Origin: an uncultured archaeon
GTDB taxonomy: Archaea > Iainarchaeota > Iainarchaeia > Iainarchaeales > CSSED10-239
Direction of reading: 5' to 3'
Assembly: GCA_964463155.1 (NCBI GenBank)
Contig: CAYXAY010000018.1
Location: forward strand, 1-14,808
DNA length: 14,808 nucleotides
Shown here: piece after piece, positions 2,695 through 14,483 of the stretch
How positions within the stretch are numbered: the stretch's first letter is position 1
Layout of the letters: each line of letters opens with the position of its first letter
The notes under the pieces: model-generated
Seen by the model: only the letters and a program-made list of their open reading frames with translations
Told to the model about the DNA's origin: nothing
Databases searched by the model: none
Made by a program: the position numbers and the translations under genes

Positions 2695-2762
2695 AATAAT
2701 CGGTTTCGCGCGATTCGTGCGCAATAGTTCCCGCAGTTATCTGCGGGTGGTTGCGGTCATGC
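2695..2762 (-). ncRNA. Candidate structured leader RNA (copy E1) abutting the 5' end of tRNA-Leu
   Basis: Minus-strand sequence: GCAUGAC-CGCAA-CCA-CCCGCAG-AUAA-CUGCGGG-AACUA-UUGCG-CACG-AAUCG-CGCGAAAC-CGAUU-AUU, then the tRNA. The architecture and conserved loops match 13100-13166. It is a GC-rich island in AT-rich DNA. Confidence 0.5.
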
Positions 2763-2795
2763 TAAACAAATCGCATAAGCGATTCTTGGCATTCT

Positions 2796-2813
2796 AAAAA
2801 CCAATTGGTTTTT
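2796..2813. repeat. Perfect 18-nt palindrome aaaaaccaattggttttt within the tRNA-Val/tRNA-Leu spacer
   Basis: The sequence is its own reverse complement. On either strand it gives a 9-bp hairpin ending in a T5 run, so it resembles a bidirectional terminator. Confidence 0.85.
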
Positions 2814-2880
2814 ATGAGCTCGCGCCCAGCTAGAACTTTGATGGCACTAACTGGTTTCACGTACTATCCTACAACCAAAC

Positions 2881-2895: not shown

Positions 2896-2968
2896 TGGAT
2901 CTGGGCGGATTCGAACCGCCGGCCCCCACCTTGTAAGGGTGATATCATAACCGCTAGACCACAGATCC
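2896..2968 (-). tRNA. tRNA-Val (anticodon UAC)
   Basis: The reverse complement is GGATCTG-TG-GTCT-AGCGGTTA-TGAT-A-TCACC-CTTACAA-GGTGG-GGGCC-GGCGG-TTCGAAT-CCGCC-CAGATCC-A, a 73-nt cloverleaf. No CCA is encoded. Confidence 0.9.
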
Positions 2969-2984
2969 ATTCTAAAAAATTAGA

Positions 2985-2998
2985 AACTATATATAATA
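2985..2998 (-). promoter_or_regulatory. TATA-box-like promoter for tRNA-Val
   Basis: The minus strand reads TTATATATAG centred about 23-27 nt upstream of the tRNA 5' end, which is typical archaeal TATA spacing. Confidence 0.45.
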
Positions 2999-3072
2999 CT
3001 AAAATGAAAATATATATAAATATATAACACCAATAATATAATATTATACTTACAAAAAAAAAGGGGGAAATT

Positions 3073-7175: not shown

Positions 7176-8435
7176 TTATTTAATTAACCATTTCCAGAGT
7201 GGAATAAATTTAATGACTTTATTGCTTATCTTTTCTTCTTTGTCTAAATCGTTTGTTACTATTGTGCCTTCTTTTAATCCAAATTTATCGCAAGCATACA
7301 ATAGTGATTTTAATTCTCTTTCTTTTGTTTTTTTATCTGTTAAATCGTAACAAACTTGTATTGCAGAAACTATTTTTGTCTTATCTTGAATTATAAAATC
7401 AACCTCCCAACTATTCTCTGCTTTATAAAAATAAATTTTGTGACCTCTTCTTAATAATTCAATAAATACTGTGTTTTCATATAGTTTCCCTAAATTTTCT
7501 GAAAACTTAAATGCTATTTGATTAATTAATCCAGTATCTATACAATATATCTTTTTTGCAACATTTTCTTGTTTTTTCAAAGAGGGATCGTATTTACTTA
7601 ACTCAAATAAAACATCTGCATTTACTAAATAAGAAACATACTTCTTTGCCGTATGAGTGCTACCCATATTAAAATTATTTTTAAGTGAAGTATATGAAAA
7701 TTCTTTAGAAAAATTAGTAATTAAAAATAATGCCAATTTCTTAAATGTATTTTCATCAGTTATTTTGTATCTATTAAGTATATCTTTATTTATAACATCA
7801 TCATATATTGAACCCAATATGTCTGAATTATTATAAACTACAACTTCTGGAAAACCTCCATTTTTTATATATTCATTTAAATATCTTTTAATTTCTACTC
7901 TCCCCTCAGTAATTTTTGGGTTTTTTTCAAATTTATTATATGCTAAATATTCTTCAAATGAGAATGGATAAATCTGTATATCAAAATGCCTTCCGGTTAA
8001 GTAAGTAGATATTTCTTTACTTAATAATTCTGCATTAGATCCGGTTATAAAAAATCTATATCCTTCAGTATATAATCTATTTACAAATTTATCCCAATTG
8101 GGTTTTCCTTGTATTTCATCAAAAAAAAATATTTTTCTTTCTCCAAATTGTTCTAATAAGGTTTCATGTAATGTCTGGAAATCTGCTGTTTTAAAATCTT
8201 GTATCCTTTCATCAGAAAAATCAAAGTAGTAATAATCTTTTCTATAAAATTTATTCATCCATTGTAAAAGAAATGTTGATTTCCCGGATCTTCTGTGTCC
8301 AGTAATAACAATATTTATCTTGTGGTCAATAAAAGAAGTAATCTCTTCTAATTTTTTTCGTAGTAATCCTTCAGACAATTTCTTTAATCTATTATTTTGA
8401 TCTAAAACAACCCGAGTTAAATATTCTTTATCCAT
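7176..8435 (-). CDS. AAA+ ATPase of the AAA_14/DUF4143 type
   Basis: Walker A is ITGHRRSGKST and Walker B is KIFFFDEIQ. The C-terminal half (YENTVFIELLRRG...EVDFII...IQVCY) has the DUF4143 restriction-endonuclease-like pattern. I start it at MDKEY (8435) rather than the upstream ATG at 8474, which would run through the promoter and operator region. Confidence 0.85.
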   Translation of the reverse strand: MDKEYLTRVVLDQNNRLKKLSEGLLRKKLEEITSFIDHKINIVITGHRRSGKSTFLLQWMNKFYRKDYYYFDFSDERIQDFKTADFQTLHETLLEQFGERKIFFFDEIQGKPNWDKFVNRLYTEGYRFFITGSNAELLSKEISTYLTGRHFDIQIYPFSFEEYLAYNKFEKNPKITEGRVEIKRYLNEYIKNGGFPEVVVYNNSDILGSIYDDVINKDILNRYKITDENTFKKLALFLITNFSKEFSYTSLKNNFNMGSTHTAKKYVSYLVNADVLFELSKYDPSLKKQENVAKKIYCIDTGLINQIAFKFSENLGKLYENTVFIELLRRGHKIYFYKAENSWEVDFIIQDKTKIVSAIQVCYDLTDKKTKERELKSLLYACDKFGLKEGTIVTNDLDKEEKISNKVIKFIPLWKWLIK

Positions 8436-8467
8436 ATATAATACAGAACAAAAGGATTTAAAAATTG

Positions 8468-8486
8468 TGTGCATTTACATTGCACA
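8468..8486. promoter_or_regulatory. Palindromic operator-like site 1: TGTGCA-N7-TGCACA
   Basis: tgtgcatttacattgcaca has perfect 6-bp inverted arms. It lies just upstream of a TTTTTAAA TATA-like box (8455-8463 region) for the ATPase gene. Confidence 0.5.
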
Positions 8487-8500
8487 AATTTTGGCATTTT

Positions 8501-8519
8501 TGTGCATTTATATTGCACG
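8501..8519. promoter_or_regulatory. Palindromic operator-like site 2: TGTGCA-N7-TGCACG
   Basis: tgtgcatttatattgcacg is a near-identical direct copy of site 1, 33 bp (about 3 helical turns) away. A third half-site, tgtgct, lies at 8525-8530. Confidence 0.5.
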
Positions 8520-8533
8520 ACATTTGTGCTAAT

Positions 8534-10380: not shown

Positions 10381-10441
10381 CTATGAAAACCTCACAAATA
10401 TCATATGTCCTTTTTGTTTTTAAATCTATTTTTCTCTACAA

Positions 10442-10658
10442 GAACACTTATCTATCCGTGCGTAGTTTTTTTGTATTTGTGTTGTTAAAGACTAGAGGCA
10501 CACCTTGTTAAGTTCGTAAGTAGAGTGCTAGCACATTCATAAACACGTGCGTCCTACTTTGCAAAGCAAAGTACATTGGCACAATGAATTCACGTGCGTC
10601 TCTTACTTATTAACTACGAGTACCCCATAGTCAATATTATTAGTAAGCATAATGTATA
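10442..10658 (-). ncRNA. Candidate structured non-coding region 3' of the IS110-like transposase relic (possible bridge/seek-RNA-like region)
   Basis: Three copies of a module lie at 10442-10463, 10529-10553 and 10577-10600. An 8-bp hairpin tactttgc-aaa-gcaaagta lies at 10555-10573. A closing helix pairs attcat (10535-10540) with atgaat (10584-10589). The palindrome gtgctagcac is also present. GC content is locally elevated. The strand assignment follows the transposase and is not proven. Confidence 0.35.
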
Positions 10659-11310
10659 TTAGGTTAACATTTTTCTAGCAATTGCTACAATTGCTTTTTG
10701 TCTCCATTTTCTTTTTTCTAATCTTTCAAACATTTCTTTGAAATGTTACAATTGATAATATATTATCTAATGCCAATCTGTCTGCATATGGCAATTCAAT
10801 TTTTGTTAGCCATTCCATTTCTCCTTTCCCAAATATGTCTGTGTATTTTGCCTTTATTCCATTTTTTAACAAAATGGAATGTGTGTGATGTTTAAGATTA
10901 CTCCTTTGTCTTACTAAATATGTTCTATTTCTAATAATTGATCTTCTAAATCTCACATGTTTTGGTGGCACGTAGCTTTCAGGTATTAATTTTACTCTAA
11001 GTAAATCCGCAAGGATTTTTGCATCAATTTCATCTGTCTTCTTTTTAGAATAAGCAATTGCTTTTACTTTTAATGGATGAGCAACGGTTACTTCGTAACC
11101 TTGCTCTTCTATTCTATCATATATTGGTTCATACATTCCACACGCTTCCATAGCAAAAGCAGTATCTTTGTCTTGTTTTTCTAAAAAATAGTCTAGTGCT
11201 TTTGTGGTATTTAATAACCTGTGATTATTAATGCCCTCTCCTTAGTCATTAATAACACAGCCCTGTATTTCTTCTTTGTGGATATCTAATCCAACAAAAT
11301 ATTTTGTCAT
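10659..11310 (-). pseudogene. Degraded IS110/IS1111-family (DEDD) transposase
   Basis: The ATG at 11310 gives MTKYFVGLDIHKEEIQGCVIND, then an in-frame TAA at 11242-11244. Reading continues ...AFAMEACGMYEP...AHPLKVKAIAYSKKKTDEIDAKILADLLR (DEDD RuvC-like N-domain) to a TGA at 10726. A +1 shifted frame then reads FERLEKRKWRQKAIVAIARKMLT-stop (10659), which is the family-typical extreme C-terminus. The central catalytic Tnp domain is missing. Confidence 0.8.
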
Positions 11311-11334
11311 TATATATCACCTCACATATTTTTG

Positions 11335-11362
11335 AATTGATATCATCTAAATGATATCAATT
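11335..11362. repeat. Perfect 12-bp-stem hairpin/palindrome upstream of the transposase start
   Basis: aattgatatcat-ctaa-atgatatcaatt has 12 of 12 complementary positions and contains two GATATC sites. On the + strand it is followed by tttt. Confidence 0.85.
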
Positions 11363-11445
11363 TTACGAGGTTTTCATAACAACAAAAATATCTCTATTTA
11401 AGATATATTTTTAATAACTATATTATCTAATTTCTATGAAGAACT

Positions 11446-13026: not shown

Positions 13027-13099
13027 CGCCCCAGGTAGGATTTGAACCTACGACCTATCGATTAACAGTCGATTGCTCCAACCACTGAGCTACTGAGGC
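13027..13099 (-). tRNA. tRNA-Asn (anticodon GUU)
   Basis: The reverse complement is GCCTCAG-TA-GCTC-AGTGGTTGG-GAGC-A-ATCGA-CTGTTAA-TCGAT-AGGTC-GTAGG-TTCAAAT-CCTAC-CTGGGGC-G, a 73-nt cloverleaf. No CCA is encoded. Confidence 0.92.
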
Positions 13100-13166
13100 A
13101 CAGCCTGTTTCGCTAGGCTGGTGCGCAATGGGTTTTGCAGTTTATCTGCAATGATTACGCGCGACC
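13100..13166 (-). ncRNA. Candidate structured leader RNA (copy E2) between the asnS stop and tRNA-Asn
   Basis: Minus-strand sequence: GGUCGC-GCGUAAU-CAU-UGCAG-AUAAA-CUGCA-AAACCC-AUUGCGC-AC-CAGCC-UAGCGAAACA-GGCUG-U, then the tRNA. It shares its architecture and the motifs GCAGAUAA(A)CUGC, AUUGCGCAC and GCGAAAC with 2695-2762. Confidence 0.5.
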
Positions 13167-13181
13167 TAACTATTTCTTTAT

Positions 13182-14483
13182 TTAAGGTTTAAAACGAACC
13201 ATGGTTCTTGGGAATGGTATTGTGTCTTTGATGTTATCAACGCCTGTAATGTAAGCTATTAATCTTTCTACACCCATACCAAAACCTGCGTGTGGAACAG
13301 AACCATATCTTCTTGTATCTAGATAAAATTCATAATGTTTTGGATCTTCTCCATCACTTAAAAGTCTTTGTTTTATCTTCTCTATGTCTGGCTCTCTTTC
13401 ACTTGCACCAATAATCTCTCCATAACCTTCTGGACCAATACAGTCAAAGCCAAGAACAACTTTGCTATCTTTTGGGTCTTCTTTCATGTAAAAGGCCTTA
13501 ACAACTTTAGGATATCTTGTTACAATTGTGAAAGTGTCATGCATTCTACTTAACTTATCCTCTTCAATTGTTCTTAAATCTTTACCCCATTCAACTTCCA
13601 GGTCTGCTTTTTCTTTTAAAAGTTTTAAAACTTCAGTATATGTCATTCTTATGAATGGTTTACCTATTGCTGTTTCTAAAAGCTTTGTATCTCTCTTTAA
13701 GATTTCTAAATCTTCTCTGTGTTTTTCTAAAACTGTTTTAATAACGTACTTGATTAAACCTTCCCCATAGTCTTGTAATTGTTCAAAATCAATCCATGCC
13801 CCTTCCATCTCAGCATGCCAGTATTCTGTTAGATGTCGTGAAGTTTTACTTTTCTCGGCTCTAAAAGATGGAGCGACTGTGTAAATCTTTCCTAAAGAAA
13901 AAATTGCTGGTTCAGCATATAGTTGCCAGGTTTGAGCTAGGGAAACTCCTTCTTCTTCAAAGTAGTCTACTTTGAAAAGACTTGACCCCCCCTCACATTG
14001 AACAGATTGAAGTATTGGTGATTGATATTCATAAAAACCTTCTTTTCTAAAATATTCATGAATTGCACCAATTACTGTTGATCTTATTTTTAAGATTGCA
14101 GTCATCTTTCTGCTTCTTAGCCACAAATGTCTAACATCTAAAAGAAATTCTTCAGAGAAATCTTTAGATATTGGATAGTTATCTGATTTTCCAACAAGTT
14201 CTATTGAGTCAATATCAACTTCATAACCTTGAGGAGATCTTTCTTCTTTTCTTAATTTTCCATGAACGATTATTGATGACTCTATTCCTAAAGCTTTTGC
14301 AGTTGCAAACTCTGCTTCTTTTAATTTGTCTTTTGCAGCAACTAACTGAATGATTCCGGTTTCATCTCTAATTGTTATAAAGATGTTATCTTTTTGATCT
14401 CTTATTCTATATACCCATCCTCTTAAAGATATTTCTTCAGTTTTACTTTCTAAAACTCCTTTAACACTTAAATATTTTTTCAT
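13182..14483 (-). CDS. asnS: Asparaginyl-tRNA synthetase (class IIb)
   Basis: It has an N-terminal OB anticodon-binding domain. Motif 2 is FRAEKSKTSRHLTEYWHAEME. Motif 3 and the C-terminus are GFGMGVERLIAYITGVDNIKDTIPFPRT. The IPFPRT ending and the SRHL context fit AsnRS better than archaeal AspRS. The cognate tRNA-Asn lies directly downstream. Confidence 0.85.
   Translation of the reverse strand: MKKYLSVKGVLESKTEEISLRGWVYRIRDQKDNIFITIRDETGIIQLVAAKDKLKEAEFATAKALGIESSIIVHGKLRKEERSPQGYEVDIDSIELVGKSDNYPISKDFSEEFLLDVRHLWLRSRKMTAILKIRSTVIGAIHEYFRKEGFYEYQSPILQSVQCEGGSSLFKVDYFEEEGVSLAQTWQLYAEPAIFSLGKIYTVAPSFRAEKSKTSRHLTEYWHAEMEGAWIDFEQLQDYGEGLIKYVIKTVLEKHREDLEILKRDTKLLETAIGKPFIRMTYTEVLKLLKEKADLEVEWGKDLRTIEEDKLSRMHDTFTIVTRYPKVVKAFYMKEDPKDSKVVLGFDCIGPEGYGEIIGASEREPDIEKIKQRLLSDGEDPKHYEFYLDTRRYGSVPHAGFGMGVERLIAYITGVDNIKDTIPFPRTMVRFKP

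Follow-up and report, generated by a model that had tools for sequence, protein, structure and literature searches.

Why should two unrelated transfer RNA (tRNA) genes begin with the same structured sequence? The question is raised by a stretch of 14,808 nucleotides (the window) from an uncultured archaeon, in which a small two-hairpin element immediately precedes both a tRNA-Leu and a tRNA-Asn gene on the minus strand. The preliminary description of this DNA named the two copies E1 and E2 and regarded them as probably a long structured 5' leader that must be removed during maturation of the tRNA. The two-hairpin plan adjoining both tRNAs is real, and the minus-strand sequence agrees with that description. 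Comparison with related genomes, however, does not support a dedicated tRNA-specific role, since the element is dispensable at a given tRNA, exchanges its modules with other copies, occurs once in inverted orientation and resides in part within the protein-coding gene ftsY. These observations indicate repeat DNA that moves or recombines; they do not demonstrate a dedicated RNA function. We put the probability at about one half that E1 and E2 belong to a new, lineage-specific family of small, modular, palindromic mobile repeats that occupy the 5' edge of tRNA genes, where they would be transcribed as a leader and cut off by RNase P.

Structure of the elements

E1 extends from 2695 to 2762 and E2 from 13100 to 13166, both on the minus strand, with their 3' edges one to two nucleotides from the first base (G1) of the tRNA. 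ARAGORN and Rfam place tRNA-Leu(AAG) at 2613-2694 (Rfam tRNA score 51.2 bits), with G1 at 2694, and tRNA-Asn(GTT, anticodon GUU) at 13027-13099, likewise on the minus strand. The overall description of E1 was right, but the start of tRNA-Leu had been displaced by one base; the true start is 2694 and E1 ends at 2695.

Both copies follow the same plan from 5' to 3': an outer pairing (P1), a hairpin (P2) with GCAG-AUAA(A)-CUGC, an A-rich joint, the sequence AUUGCGCAC, a second hairpin (P3), one or two U residues and G1. The P3 loop comprises 8 nt and ends with GCGAAAC in E1 as in E2, and the stems that carry it are wholly different, GAAUCG/CGAUU(A) in E1 versus CAGCCU/AGGCUG in E2. In E1, the 5' strand of P1, CGCAA, lies within CCGCAAC (2750-2756) and pairs with UUGCG of the core. 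After an internal loop follow P2, CCCGCAG-AUAA-CUGCGGG (2730-2747), and the joint AACU (2726-2729), both delimited by folding and pairing counts (2726-2747 together); the core AUUGCGCAC (2717-2725), whose invariance emerges from sequence comparison; P3 (2697-2716), defined by pairing counts and composed of GAAUCG (2711-2716), the loop CGCGAAAC (2703-2710) and CGAUUA (2697-2702); and the linker UU (2695-2696), in place of which most relatives have a single U. In E2, folding pairs the 5' strand of P1, GCGUAAU (13154-13160), with AUUGCGC, including one U-G pair. It is followed by CA, by P2, UUGCAG-AUAAA-CUGCAA (13135-13151), and the joint AACCC (13130-13134), which together span 13130-13151, by the invariant core AUUGCGCAC (13121-13129) and by P3 with its linker (13100-13120), namely CAGCCU (13115-13120), the loop AGCGAAAC (13107-13114), AGGCUG (13101-13106) and the U at 13100. 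That this U-G pair favors an RNA of the minus strand, as had been argued, is valid but depends on very few pairs.

P1 is present in E1 and E2, as originally described, and also in the related loci L064, L096 and L119 (loci are designated by L numbers). It is not conserved in all relatives, however, being weak or absent in L051 and L002, and the core is invariant across copies despite the varying P1 partner. The 5' strand of P1 coincides with a second copy of the loop motif, SSGMAAC, which reads CCGCAAC in E1 and, at the same position, CCGAAAC in L005, GAGCAAC in L064 and AUGCAAC in L119. The unit of the family, from 5' to 3', thus consists of an optional module H0, SSGMAAC, P2, the A-rich joint, the invariant AUUGCGCRC, P3 with a loop ending in GCGAAAC, and one U. 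The 23-nt signature ATTGCGCAC-N7-GCGAAAC occurs exactly twice in the window, compared with no occurrence in 200 shuffles, and E1 and E2 each fold better than their shuffled versions (z ~ -2.9, i.e. 2.9 standard deviations).

Copies in related archaea

When single genomes representing each species and metagenomes of the Joint Genome Institute (JGI) were scanned with a pattern made up of P2, core and loop motif, 83 stretches were obtained. The only low-GC archaeal matches among them were L002 (identical with L045), L005, L051 and L064, in which the element ends one nucleotide before tRNA-Gly(CCC), tRNA-Leu(UAG), tRNA-Asn and tRNA-Gly(UCC), respectively. The remaining matches, about 78, are GC-rich and bacterial, and none of those inspected precedes a tRNA. 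Syntenic contigs gathered through homologs of asparaginyl-tRNA synthetase (AsnRS) and primase contain tRNA-Asn copies in L096/97 and L090/91, an inverted copy in L084, and diverged copies at tRNA-Leu(AAG) in L088, L096/97 and L090-92. When the peptide encoded by an insertion in ftsY (see below) was used as a protein query, it matched only a spurious open reading frame (P0241) spanning another element and tRNA-Leu. This match led to a further copy at tRNA-Leu(UAG) in L119 and to no additional in-frame insertions. Fragments of at most 20 kb were examined per genome, and each revealed a few copies. Genome and metagenome scans and syntenic contigs together provide at least ten copies beyond E1 and E2, hence at least 12 distinct copies, all of them from one DPANN lineage (Iainarchaeota/Diapherotrites). 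Five tRNA species carry the element: Leu(AAG), Leu(UAG), Asn, Gly(CCC) and Gly(UCC).

A covariance model, R1, built from seven compact copies, assigns scores of 71-81 bits to these copies and of 19-52 bits to the variants. The preliminary description had suggested a covariance-model search for further copies, which those in related archaea, scored by R1, now supply. It had also raised the question of whether copies always adjoin the 5' ends of tRNAs; this applies to the five tRNA species but not to the ftsY copies or to a half-site in L087 that lacks a tRNA. The impression that the element matches no RNA family was borne out by Rfam. A cmscan of the window against Rfam 15 at E<=1 returned only three tRNAs and one spurious antisense-tRNA match, and a search of seven related loci at the gathering score returned only tRNAs and small-subunit ribosomal RNA. 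No Rfam 15 family, including hammerhead, twister, pistol, hatchet, hepatitis delta virus (HDV)-like ribozymes and riboswitches, matched the element in these searches, nor was an earlier description of it found in the literature searched. Core-loop matches in viral contigs (n=19) were attributed to chance; all are GC-rich and only 0-5 of the 6 P3 pairs can form.

Among the seven compact copies, 97.6% of the cells in P2 and P3 are paired and 9 of the 12 pairs are changed on both sides. None of 500 shuffles paired as well, and no register shift came near this value. Twelve copies of core and P3 display six different P3 stems with 88.9% of their cells paired. From the extent of pairing and the variety of the stems it follows that both hairpins are maintained. 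Pairing is therefore preserved in the further copies, as the preliminary description would have it, but through the exchange of whole stems.

Copies within ftsY

R1 also matches the sense strand of ftsY, which encodes the signal recognition particle receptor, at three sites, none of which has P2 or an adjoining tRNA. In L090 (18278-18376, the same as L092 10709-10807) the match is an in-frame insertion of 99 nt (33 codons; TKEAIAREPMTIEGSQGTKKSQSDLFSASETGS) that consists of the core, the 5' arm of P3 (P3a), H0, GCGAAAC, the 3' arm of P3 (P3b) and T. It interrupts the N-terminal variable region and is cleanly absent from the near-identical L091, which has an identical primase, and from L093, L096 and L098. 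The second site is occupied by a compact core with P3 (L096 19412-19445) and the third by a decaying copy (L091 18551-18595).

Gain, loss and exchange of modules

Upstream of tRNA-Asn the element is present in the window, L096 and L091, whereas L120 and L089 have an empty site there. The AsnRS of L120 is 96% identical to that of the window, and its tRNA-Asn is preceded only by an AT-rich spacer with a TATA-like box at approximately -30. The tRNA-Leu(AAG) site is empty in L093-95, where the gene lies 24 nt after tRNA-Val. The element is dispensable at the same tRNA in close relatives. As a separate observation, the tRNA-Asn of L120 (11339-11411) differs from that of the window (13027-13099) at about eight positions despite the 96% identity of the synthetases; the tRNA-Asn genes of L096, L091 and L084 are identical to the window's. 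A possible explanation is that one lineage acquired a different tRNA-Asn gene in place of its own, either alone or together with the leader.

Two types of P2 and two of P3 occur at tRNA-Asn, in every possible combination: GCAG with CAGCCU in the window, GCAG with GAAUCG in L051, CGUGC with CAGCCU in L096 and CGUGC with GAAUC in L091. The four combinations indicate recombination between copies. The difference between the P3 stems of E1 and E2, previously interpreted as three fully compensated pair swaps, therefore does not reflect stepwise compensation but replacement of whole arms through module swapping. The core with P3 is identical (30/30) before tRNA-Gly(CCC), tRNA-Leu(UAG), tRNA-Asn and tRNA-Gly(UCC) in different genomes.

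The element also accepts nested modules of 52-59 nt, all of which enter between the 5' arm of P3 and GCGAAAC. The nested content comprises a promoter-like hairpin A and a hairpin B in the tRNA-Asn copy of L091, two A5...U5 hairpins in the tRNA-Leu copy of L090, and hairpin B with H0 in L119, L084 and the ftsY copy of L090. A 57-nt H0 module in the P3 loop of L119 is absent from the ortholog in L005, which makes a clean filled/empty pair. In the window, the region upstream of E1 contains the same components side by side. An H0 module, recognised by blastn, occupies 2757-2790 (minus strand) with the hairpin AAUCGC-UUAU-GCGAUU and GUUUAGCA; it is the module found inside the P3 loops of L119, L084 and the L090 ftsY copy. 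Next to it at 2791-2816 (minus strand) lies the A module CATAAAAACCAATTGGTTTTTAGAAT, identified by sequence comparison and blastn, in which a hairpin is joined by a promoter-like box. The TTTTTAGAAT|G of this module agrees with positions -10 to -1 of tRNA-Val, and A also resides within the P3 loop of the L091 tRNA-Asn copy. Further upstream (2816-2854, minus strand) homology reveals CCAGUUAG...CUAGCUGG, GCGC and GAGCUC, what is left of the 5' half of an earlier 'type B' copy that has diverged and decayed. Its homologs are the intact leaders of tRNA-Leu in L096 and L088; hence E1, together with A and H0, was added between this relic and tRNA-Leu.

Larger rearrangements are also found. In L084 (11303-11415) the entire composite, consisting of P2, the core, P3a, hairpin B, H0, GCGAAAC and P3b, is inverted relative to tRNA-Asn and fills the gap between the AsnRS stop codon and the tRNA, flush with both. 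In L088 (18745-18862) a 49-nt unit (AGCGCAGC, a hairpin, GCUGCGUGC and GAGCUG), bounded by the loop motif, is tandemly duplicated upstream of tRNA-Leu; the duplication looks like the product of unequal recombination between two copies of the motif. SSGMAAC flanks P2, the core and P3a as a direct repeat, the two copies of which are non-identical in most elements. A solitary ATTGCGCGC-GAGCTC, corresponding to the core and the 5' arm of P3, was noticed in L087 (16925-16990) just after the stop codon of a gene encoding 117 amino acids. It has neither a GCGAAAC/P3b partner nor a tRNA, and it may be a half-site left behind by a rearrangement.

Probable transcription and removal of the element as a leader

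A TATA-like sequence had been reported just upstream of E2. It is TTAAATAAAG at 13176-13185 (minus strand), which overlaps the AsnRS stop codon (13182-13184). Judged from its position, it would make transcription begin approximately where E2 has its 5' edge, and a homologous box would drive the element-free tRNA-Asn of L120. TATA-like boxes are located approximately 25 nt upstream of the 5' edge of the element in E2, L064, L005 and L051, and at these loci, as at E1, no TATA box lies between the element and the tRNA, in accordance with the preliminary description. Based on the positions of the boxes, the element is most likely transcribed as a tRNA 5' leader. When leader and tRNA were folded together, the leader hairpins remained separate from the acceptor stem for both E1 and E2, and for E2 the full cloverleaf was kept as well. 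A 5' leader that has to be removed is the most probable end state, as had been proposed.

L090, L093, L096 and L098 each contain a gene for the RNase P protein Rpr2/Rpp21, and L096 belongs to the same metagenome-assembled genome (MAG), DAOOUC01, as the element-bearing L002. Ordinary removal by RNase P is therefore available in the lineage, and the idea that the element replaces RNase P is weakened, having lost its motive. The third tRNA of the window, tRNA-Val(UAC) at 2896-2968 (minus strand), lacks the element; an AT-rich sequence resembling a TATA box is located at about -29 to -21 (within 2969-3000, minus strand). Element-free tRNAs of the lineage (Val, Thr, Glu, Ile, Gln and Gly-GCC; L005, L064 and L084-L099) are preceded by AT-rich, TATA-like boxes between about -30 and -21, which suggests that tRNAs of this lineage are made with very short leaders or none, even though Rpp21 is encoded.

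Mobile repeat or functional RNA

In the model that we favor, the copies behave as mobile or recombining DNA. They come and go between near-identical genomes, whole hairpin modules are exchanged, nested modules enter at the one fixed point between the P3 5' arm and GCGAAAC, and a copy can be inverted or can be inserted in-frame where a coding region tolerates it. Next to tRNAs the element occupies the gap from the TATA-like box to the tRNA +1. There it would give rise to a structured leader, folded separately from the tRNA, and RNase P would then cut the leader off; a location from which the insert is removed at the RNA level would constitute a safe harbour. The promoter-like module A in some copies could sustain expression of the tRNA. 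A second refuge would be offered by coding regions that tolerate the insert, such as that for the N-terminus of FtsY. The enzyme that moves the element would recognise the conserved core and loop. The hairpin and its flank could be recognised as single-stranded DNA, by analogy with the repetitive extragenic palindromic (REP) sequences discussed below.

Several findings weigh against this model. No transposase or recombinase linked to the element was found in the loci examined. Terminal inverted repeats were not seen; the inverted repeats are the internal P2 and P3, and the left (core/P2) and right (P3b-T) ends are not inverted copies of each other. A clear target-site duplication was not seen either, the sole in-frame filled/empty pair, that of ftsY, allowing at most 3 nt (GCC...GCT). 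Random insertion followed by tolerance fails to explain a junction one to two nucleotides from G1 at five or more independent tRNA loci. The copy number seen in the fragments is low. Nearly all copies are oriented with transcription and have almost perfect hairpins, and a functional RNA would look alike. The inversion in L084 comes from one assembly, L085 being probably derived from the same data, and may be an assembly artefact. Finally, the ftsY copies all lack P2, and a P2 form with activity at the RNA level could be intolerable in mRNAs. We assign a small chance to a variant of the model: the P2 form would be an RNA-active mobile element that inserts exactly at the +1 of leaderless tRNA genes and then clears itself out of the RNA, either through chemistry of its own or by acting as a mimic of a tRNA arm for a tRNA-processing enzyme. 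The cost to the host would be nil, and only the inactive form without P2 would survive in mRNAs such as that of ftsY.

It is possible, though rather unlikely, that the element is a dedicated RNA leader acting in cis at a subset of tRNAs and that its spread and shuffling represent concerted evolution of a useful cassette. Such a leader would be a candidate for tuning RNase P processing or pre-tRNA stability, for binding a protein or for releasing a small RNA. The hairpins retained in all tRNA-linked copies, the invariant core and GCGAAAC loop, the constant spacing to G1, the orientation of about 12 of 13 copies with transcription, the few G-U pairs on the tRNA strand and the lack of P2 in ftsY would all fit this explanation. 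Against it count the dispensability at the same tRNA in close relatives and the occurrence of core and P3 in-frame in a protein gene and once inverted. Moreover, the core is invariant while its P1 partner varies or is missing (L051, L002), and no known RNA family matches. An H-type pseudoknot between CGC of the core and GCG of the loop was considered; 86% of its positions are paired, but it exhibits no changes on both sides, is broken in diverged copies and is therefore unsupported. This lack of covariation also detracts from a self-processing leader, which would be a small ribozyme or a mimic of the tRNA acceptor arm cut by tRNase Z independently of RNase P. P3 ends one nucleotide from G1, every element-bearing tRNA begins with GC, a compact hairpin with the possible pseudoknot sits beside the cut site, and tRNAs of the lineage that do not carry the element seem to have no leader, their TATA box lying at about -25. 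We nevertheless regard self-processing as very unlikely: the cmscan at E<=1 returned none of the hammerhead, twister, pistol, hatchet or HDV-like ribozymes, Rpp21 is encoded in the lineage, including the MAG with the element, and core and P3 reside in ftsY mRNA. No small ribozyme is known to cut at its own extreme 3' end, which also counts against this explanation. Inspection of E1 and E2 by eye disclosed neither a hammerhead core (CUGANGA) nor C/D or H/ACA boxes, nor a bulge-helix-bulge where -1 meets +1; nor did the core or loop prove complementary to tRNA bodies or trailers.

Two further explanations place the function in the DNA. The element could be an att-like site in which a recombinase uses core, P3a | GCGAAAC, P3b, so that modules would enter and be swapped at this one point of the P3 loop, the copies next to tRNAs being resident sites. 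All rearrangement breakpoints seen fall between the P3 5' arm and GCGAAAC (tRNA-Asn of L091, tRNA-Leu of L090, L119, L084, the L090 ftsY copy, the relic of the window and the solitary half-site at L087 16932), and the combination of a variable stem with a conserved flank and loop resembles structure-recognised sites such as integron attC. But no recombinase gene lies nearby, the inserted modules carry no genes, of the attC core pair RYYYAAC/GTTRRRY only AAC is present, and ordinary recombination between two copies of the motif suffices for the L088 duplication; a recombinase site is thus improbable. Least credible of all, with hardly any probability left to it, is a promoter or operator at the DNA level, in which the palindromes would be transcription factor sites or an unusual tRNA core promoter starting at +1. 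The TATA-box position, -30 to -22 from +1, is taken by ATTGCGCAC, preceded by CGAAA, which resembles a TFB recognition element (BRE), and TGCGCA is palindromic. As a TATA box ATTGCGCAC was rejected, being GC-rich and present in copies within a coding region. A GC-rich box in a genome of 31% G+C, the other tRNA promoters of which are AT-rich, stems that change completely and yet stay paired, the copies inside ftsY and the normal TATA-like boxes upstream of the elements all argue against a promoter.

Host and neighboring genes

The genes flanking the tRNAs encode AsnRS, cysteinyl-tRNA synthetase (CysRS), Kae1, Pth2, Hjc, a DnaG-type primase and a transglutaminase-like protein. Their nearest homologs are named Candidatus Iainarchaeum or Diapherotrites, with Woesearchaeota and Nanoarchaeota more distant, and the G+C content is 31%. 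The host is a DPANN archaeon. A truncated transposase of the IS110 family (DEDD_Tnp_IS110, 141 amino acids; 10726-11151, minus strand) lies inside an insertion of about 1 kb (10381-11445) that separates CysRS from Kae1, genes that are only about 60 bp apart in relatives. This remnant was rejected as the mobiliser of the element, its flanks being devoid of element motifs. A 29-nt direct repeat, present in two copies 33 nt apart at 8465-8526 and containing the palindrome TGTGCA...TGCACA, sits just upstream of a gene for an AAA_14/DUF4143 ATPase (7176-8474, minus strand) and is possibly an operator.

Comparison with known repeats and tRNA-targeting elements

Little is known about the mobile DNA of DPANN archaea, whose genomes are very compact. 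To judge by Rfam and the literature searched, no small repeat family would have been described for Iainarchaeota/Diapherotrites before this one. What is known is the kind, small palindromic mobile repeats; what is new are the family, its lineage, the abutment on the tRNA +1 and the fixed nesting point. The position flush with the tRNA +1, as a pre-tRNA leader, suggests a 'safe-harbour' strategy comparable to that of the eukaryotic retrotransposons discussed below, but in an archaeon and on the scale of 50-150 nt. Selfish repeats can yield structured leaders, portable promoters and new peptide segments, such as the 33 residues in FtsY. For the discovery of RNA motifs the family is a caution, as whole-stem swaps among repeat copies mimic covariation.

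Bacterial repeats are among the closest known counterparts. Rickettsia palindromic elements (RPEs) are small palindromic repeats inserted in-frame into genes (PMC10969869). Like RPEs, BOX, Correia and enterobacterial repetitive intergenic consensus (ERIC) sequences, the element is small, non-coding, multi-copy, hairpin-forming and polymorphic in its presence between close genomes (PMC10969869), and in being small, non-coding, multi-copy and polymorphic it also agrees with miniature inverted-repeat transposable elements. It shares with RPEs the in-frame position in a coding gene, at three sites of ftsY including the 33-codon case, by analogy and not by homology; with pneumococcal BOX its modular construction; and with Correia promoter-like modules. 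It differs from all four in having no sequence similarity to any of them, in being archaeal and, so far, of low copy number, in the terminal inverted repeats and target duplication not seen in it, in its preference for the exact 5' edge of tRNAs and in nesting at one point of a hairpin loop. Like REP sequences and bacterial interspersed mosaic elements (BIME), which are mobilised by RAYT (IS200/IS605-like) transposases, the minimal unit of core and P3 is short and imperfectly palindromic; it measures about 31 nt and combines the conserved AUUGCGCRC at its 5' end, the head, with a hairpin of 5-6 bp. REPs, however, lie outside genes, usually on their 3' side, and number hundreds of copies that share a single stem sequence, whereas the stems of the element vary, its copies precede tRNAs or lie within a gene, and the fragments examined showed no RAYT-like gene. 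As for integron attC, the loop motif ends with AAC but has no GTTRRRY partner, and no integrase gene is present in the loci examined.

In its choice of site the element has parallels among eukaryotic retrotransposons and in tRNA leaders. Natural archaeal leaders are short and unconserved, whereas this one is long, structured, common to unrelated tRNAs and found away from tRNAs as well. Like leaders processed by RNase P and engineered structured leaders (PMC8925977), it lies between the promoter and +1 and is separate from the acceptor stem; the TATA-like box upstream and the Rpr2/Rpp21 genes of the lineage are consistent with such a leader. The retrotransposons Ty3 of yeast and TRE5-A and DGLT-A of Dictyostelium target the upstream side of tRNA genes (PMC6101501). 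They are eukaryotic, autonomous and kilobase-sized and are guided by RNA polymerase III factors, whereas the element is archaeal, measures 50-150 nt and becomes part of the pre-tRNA. In common with them, it settles immediately 5' of tRNA genes, a safe location where genes are densely packed.

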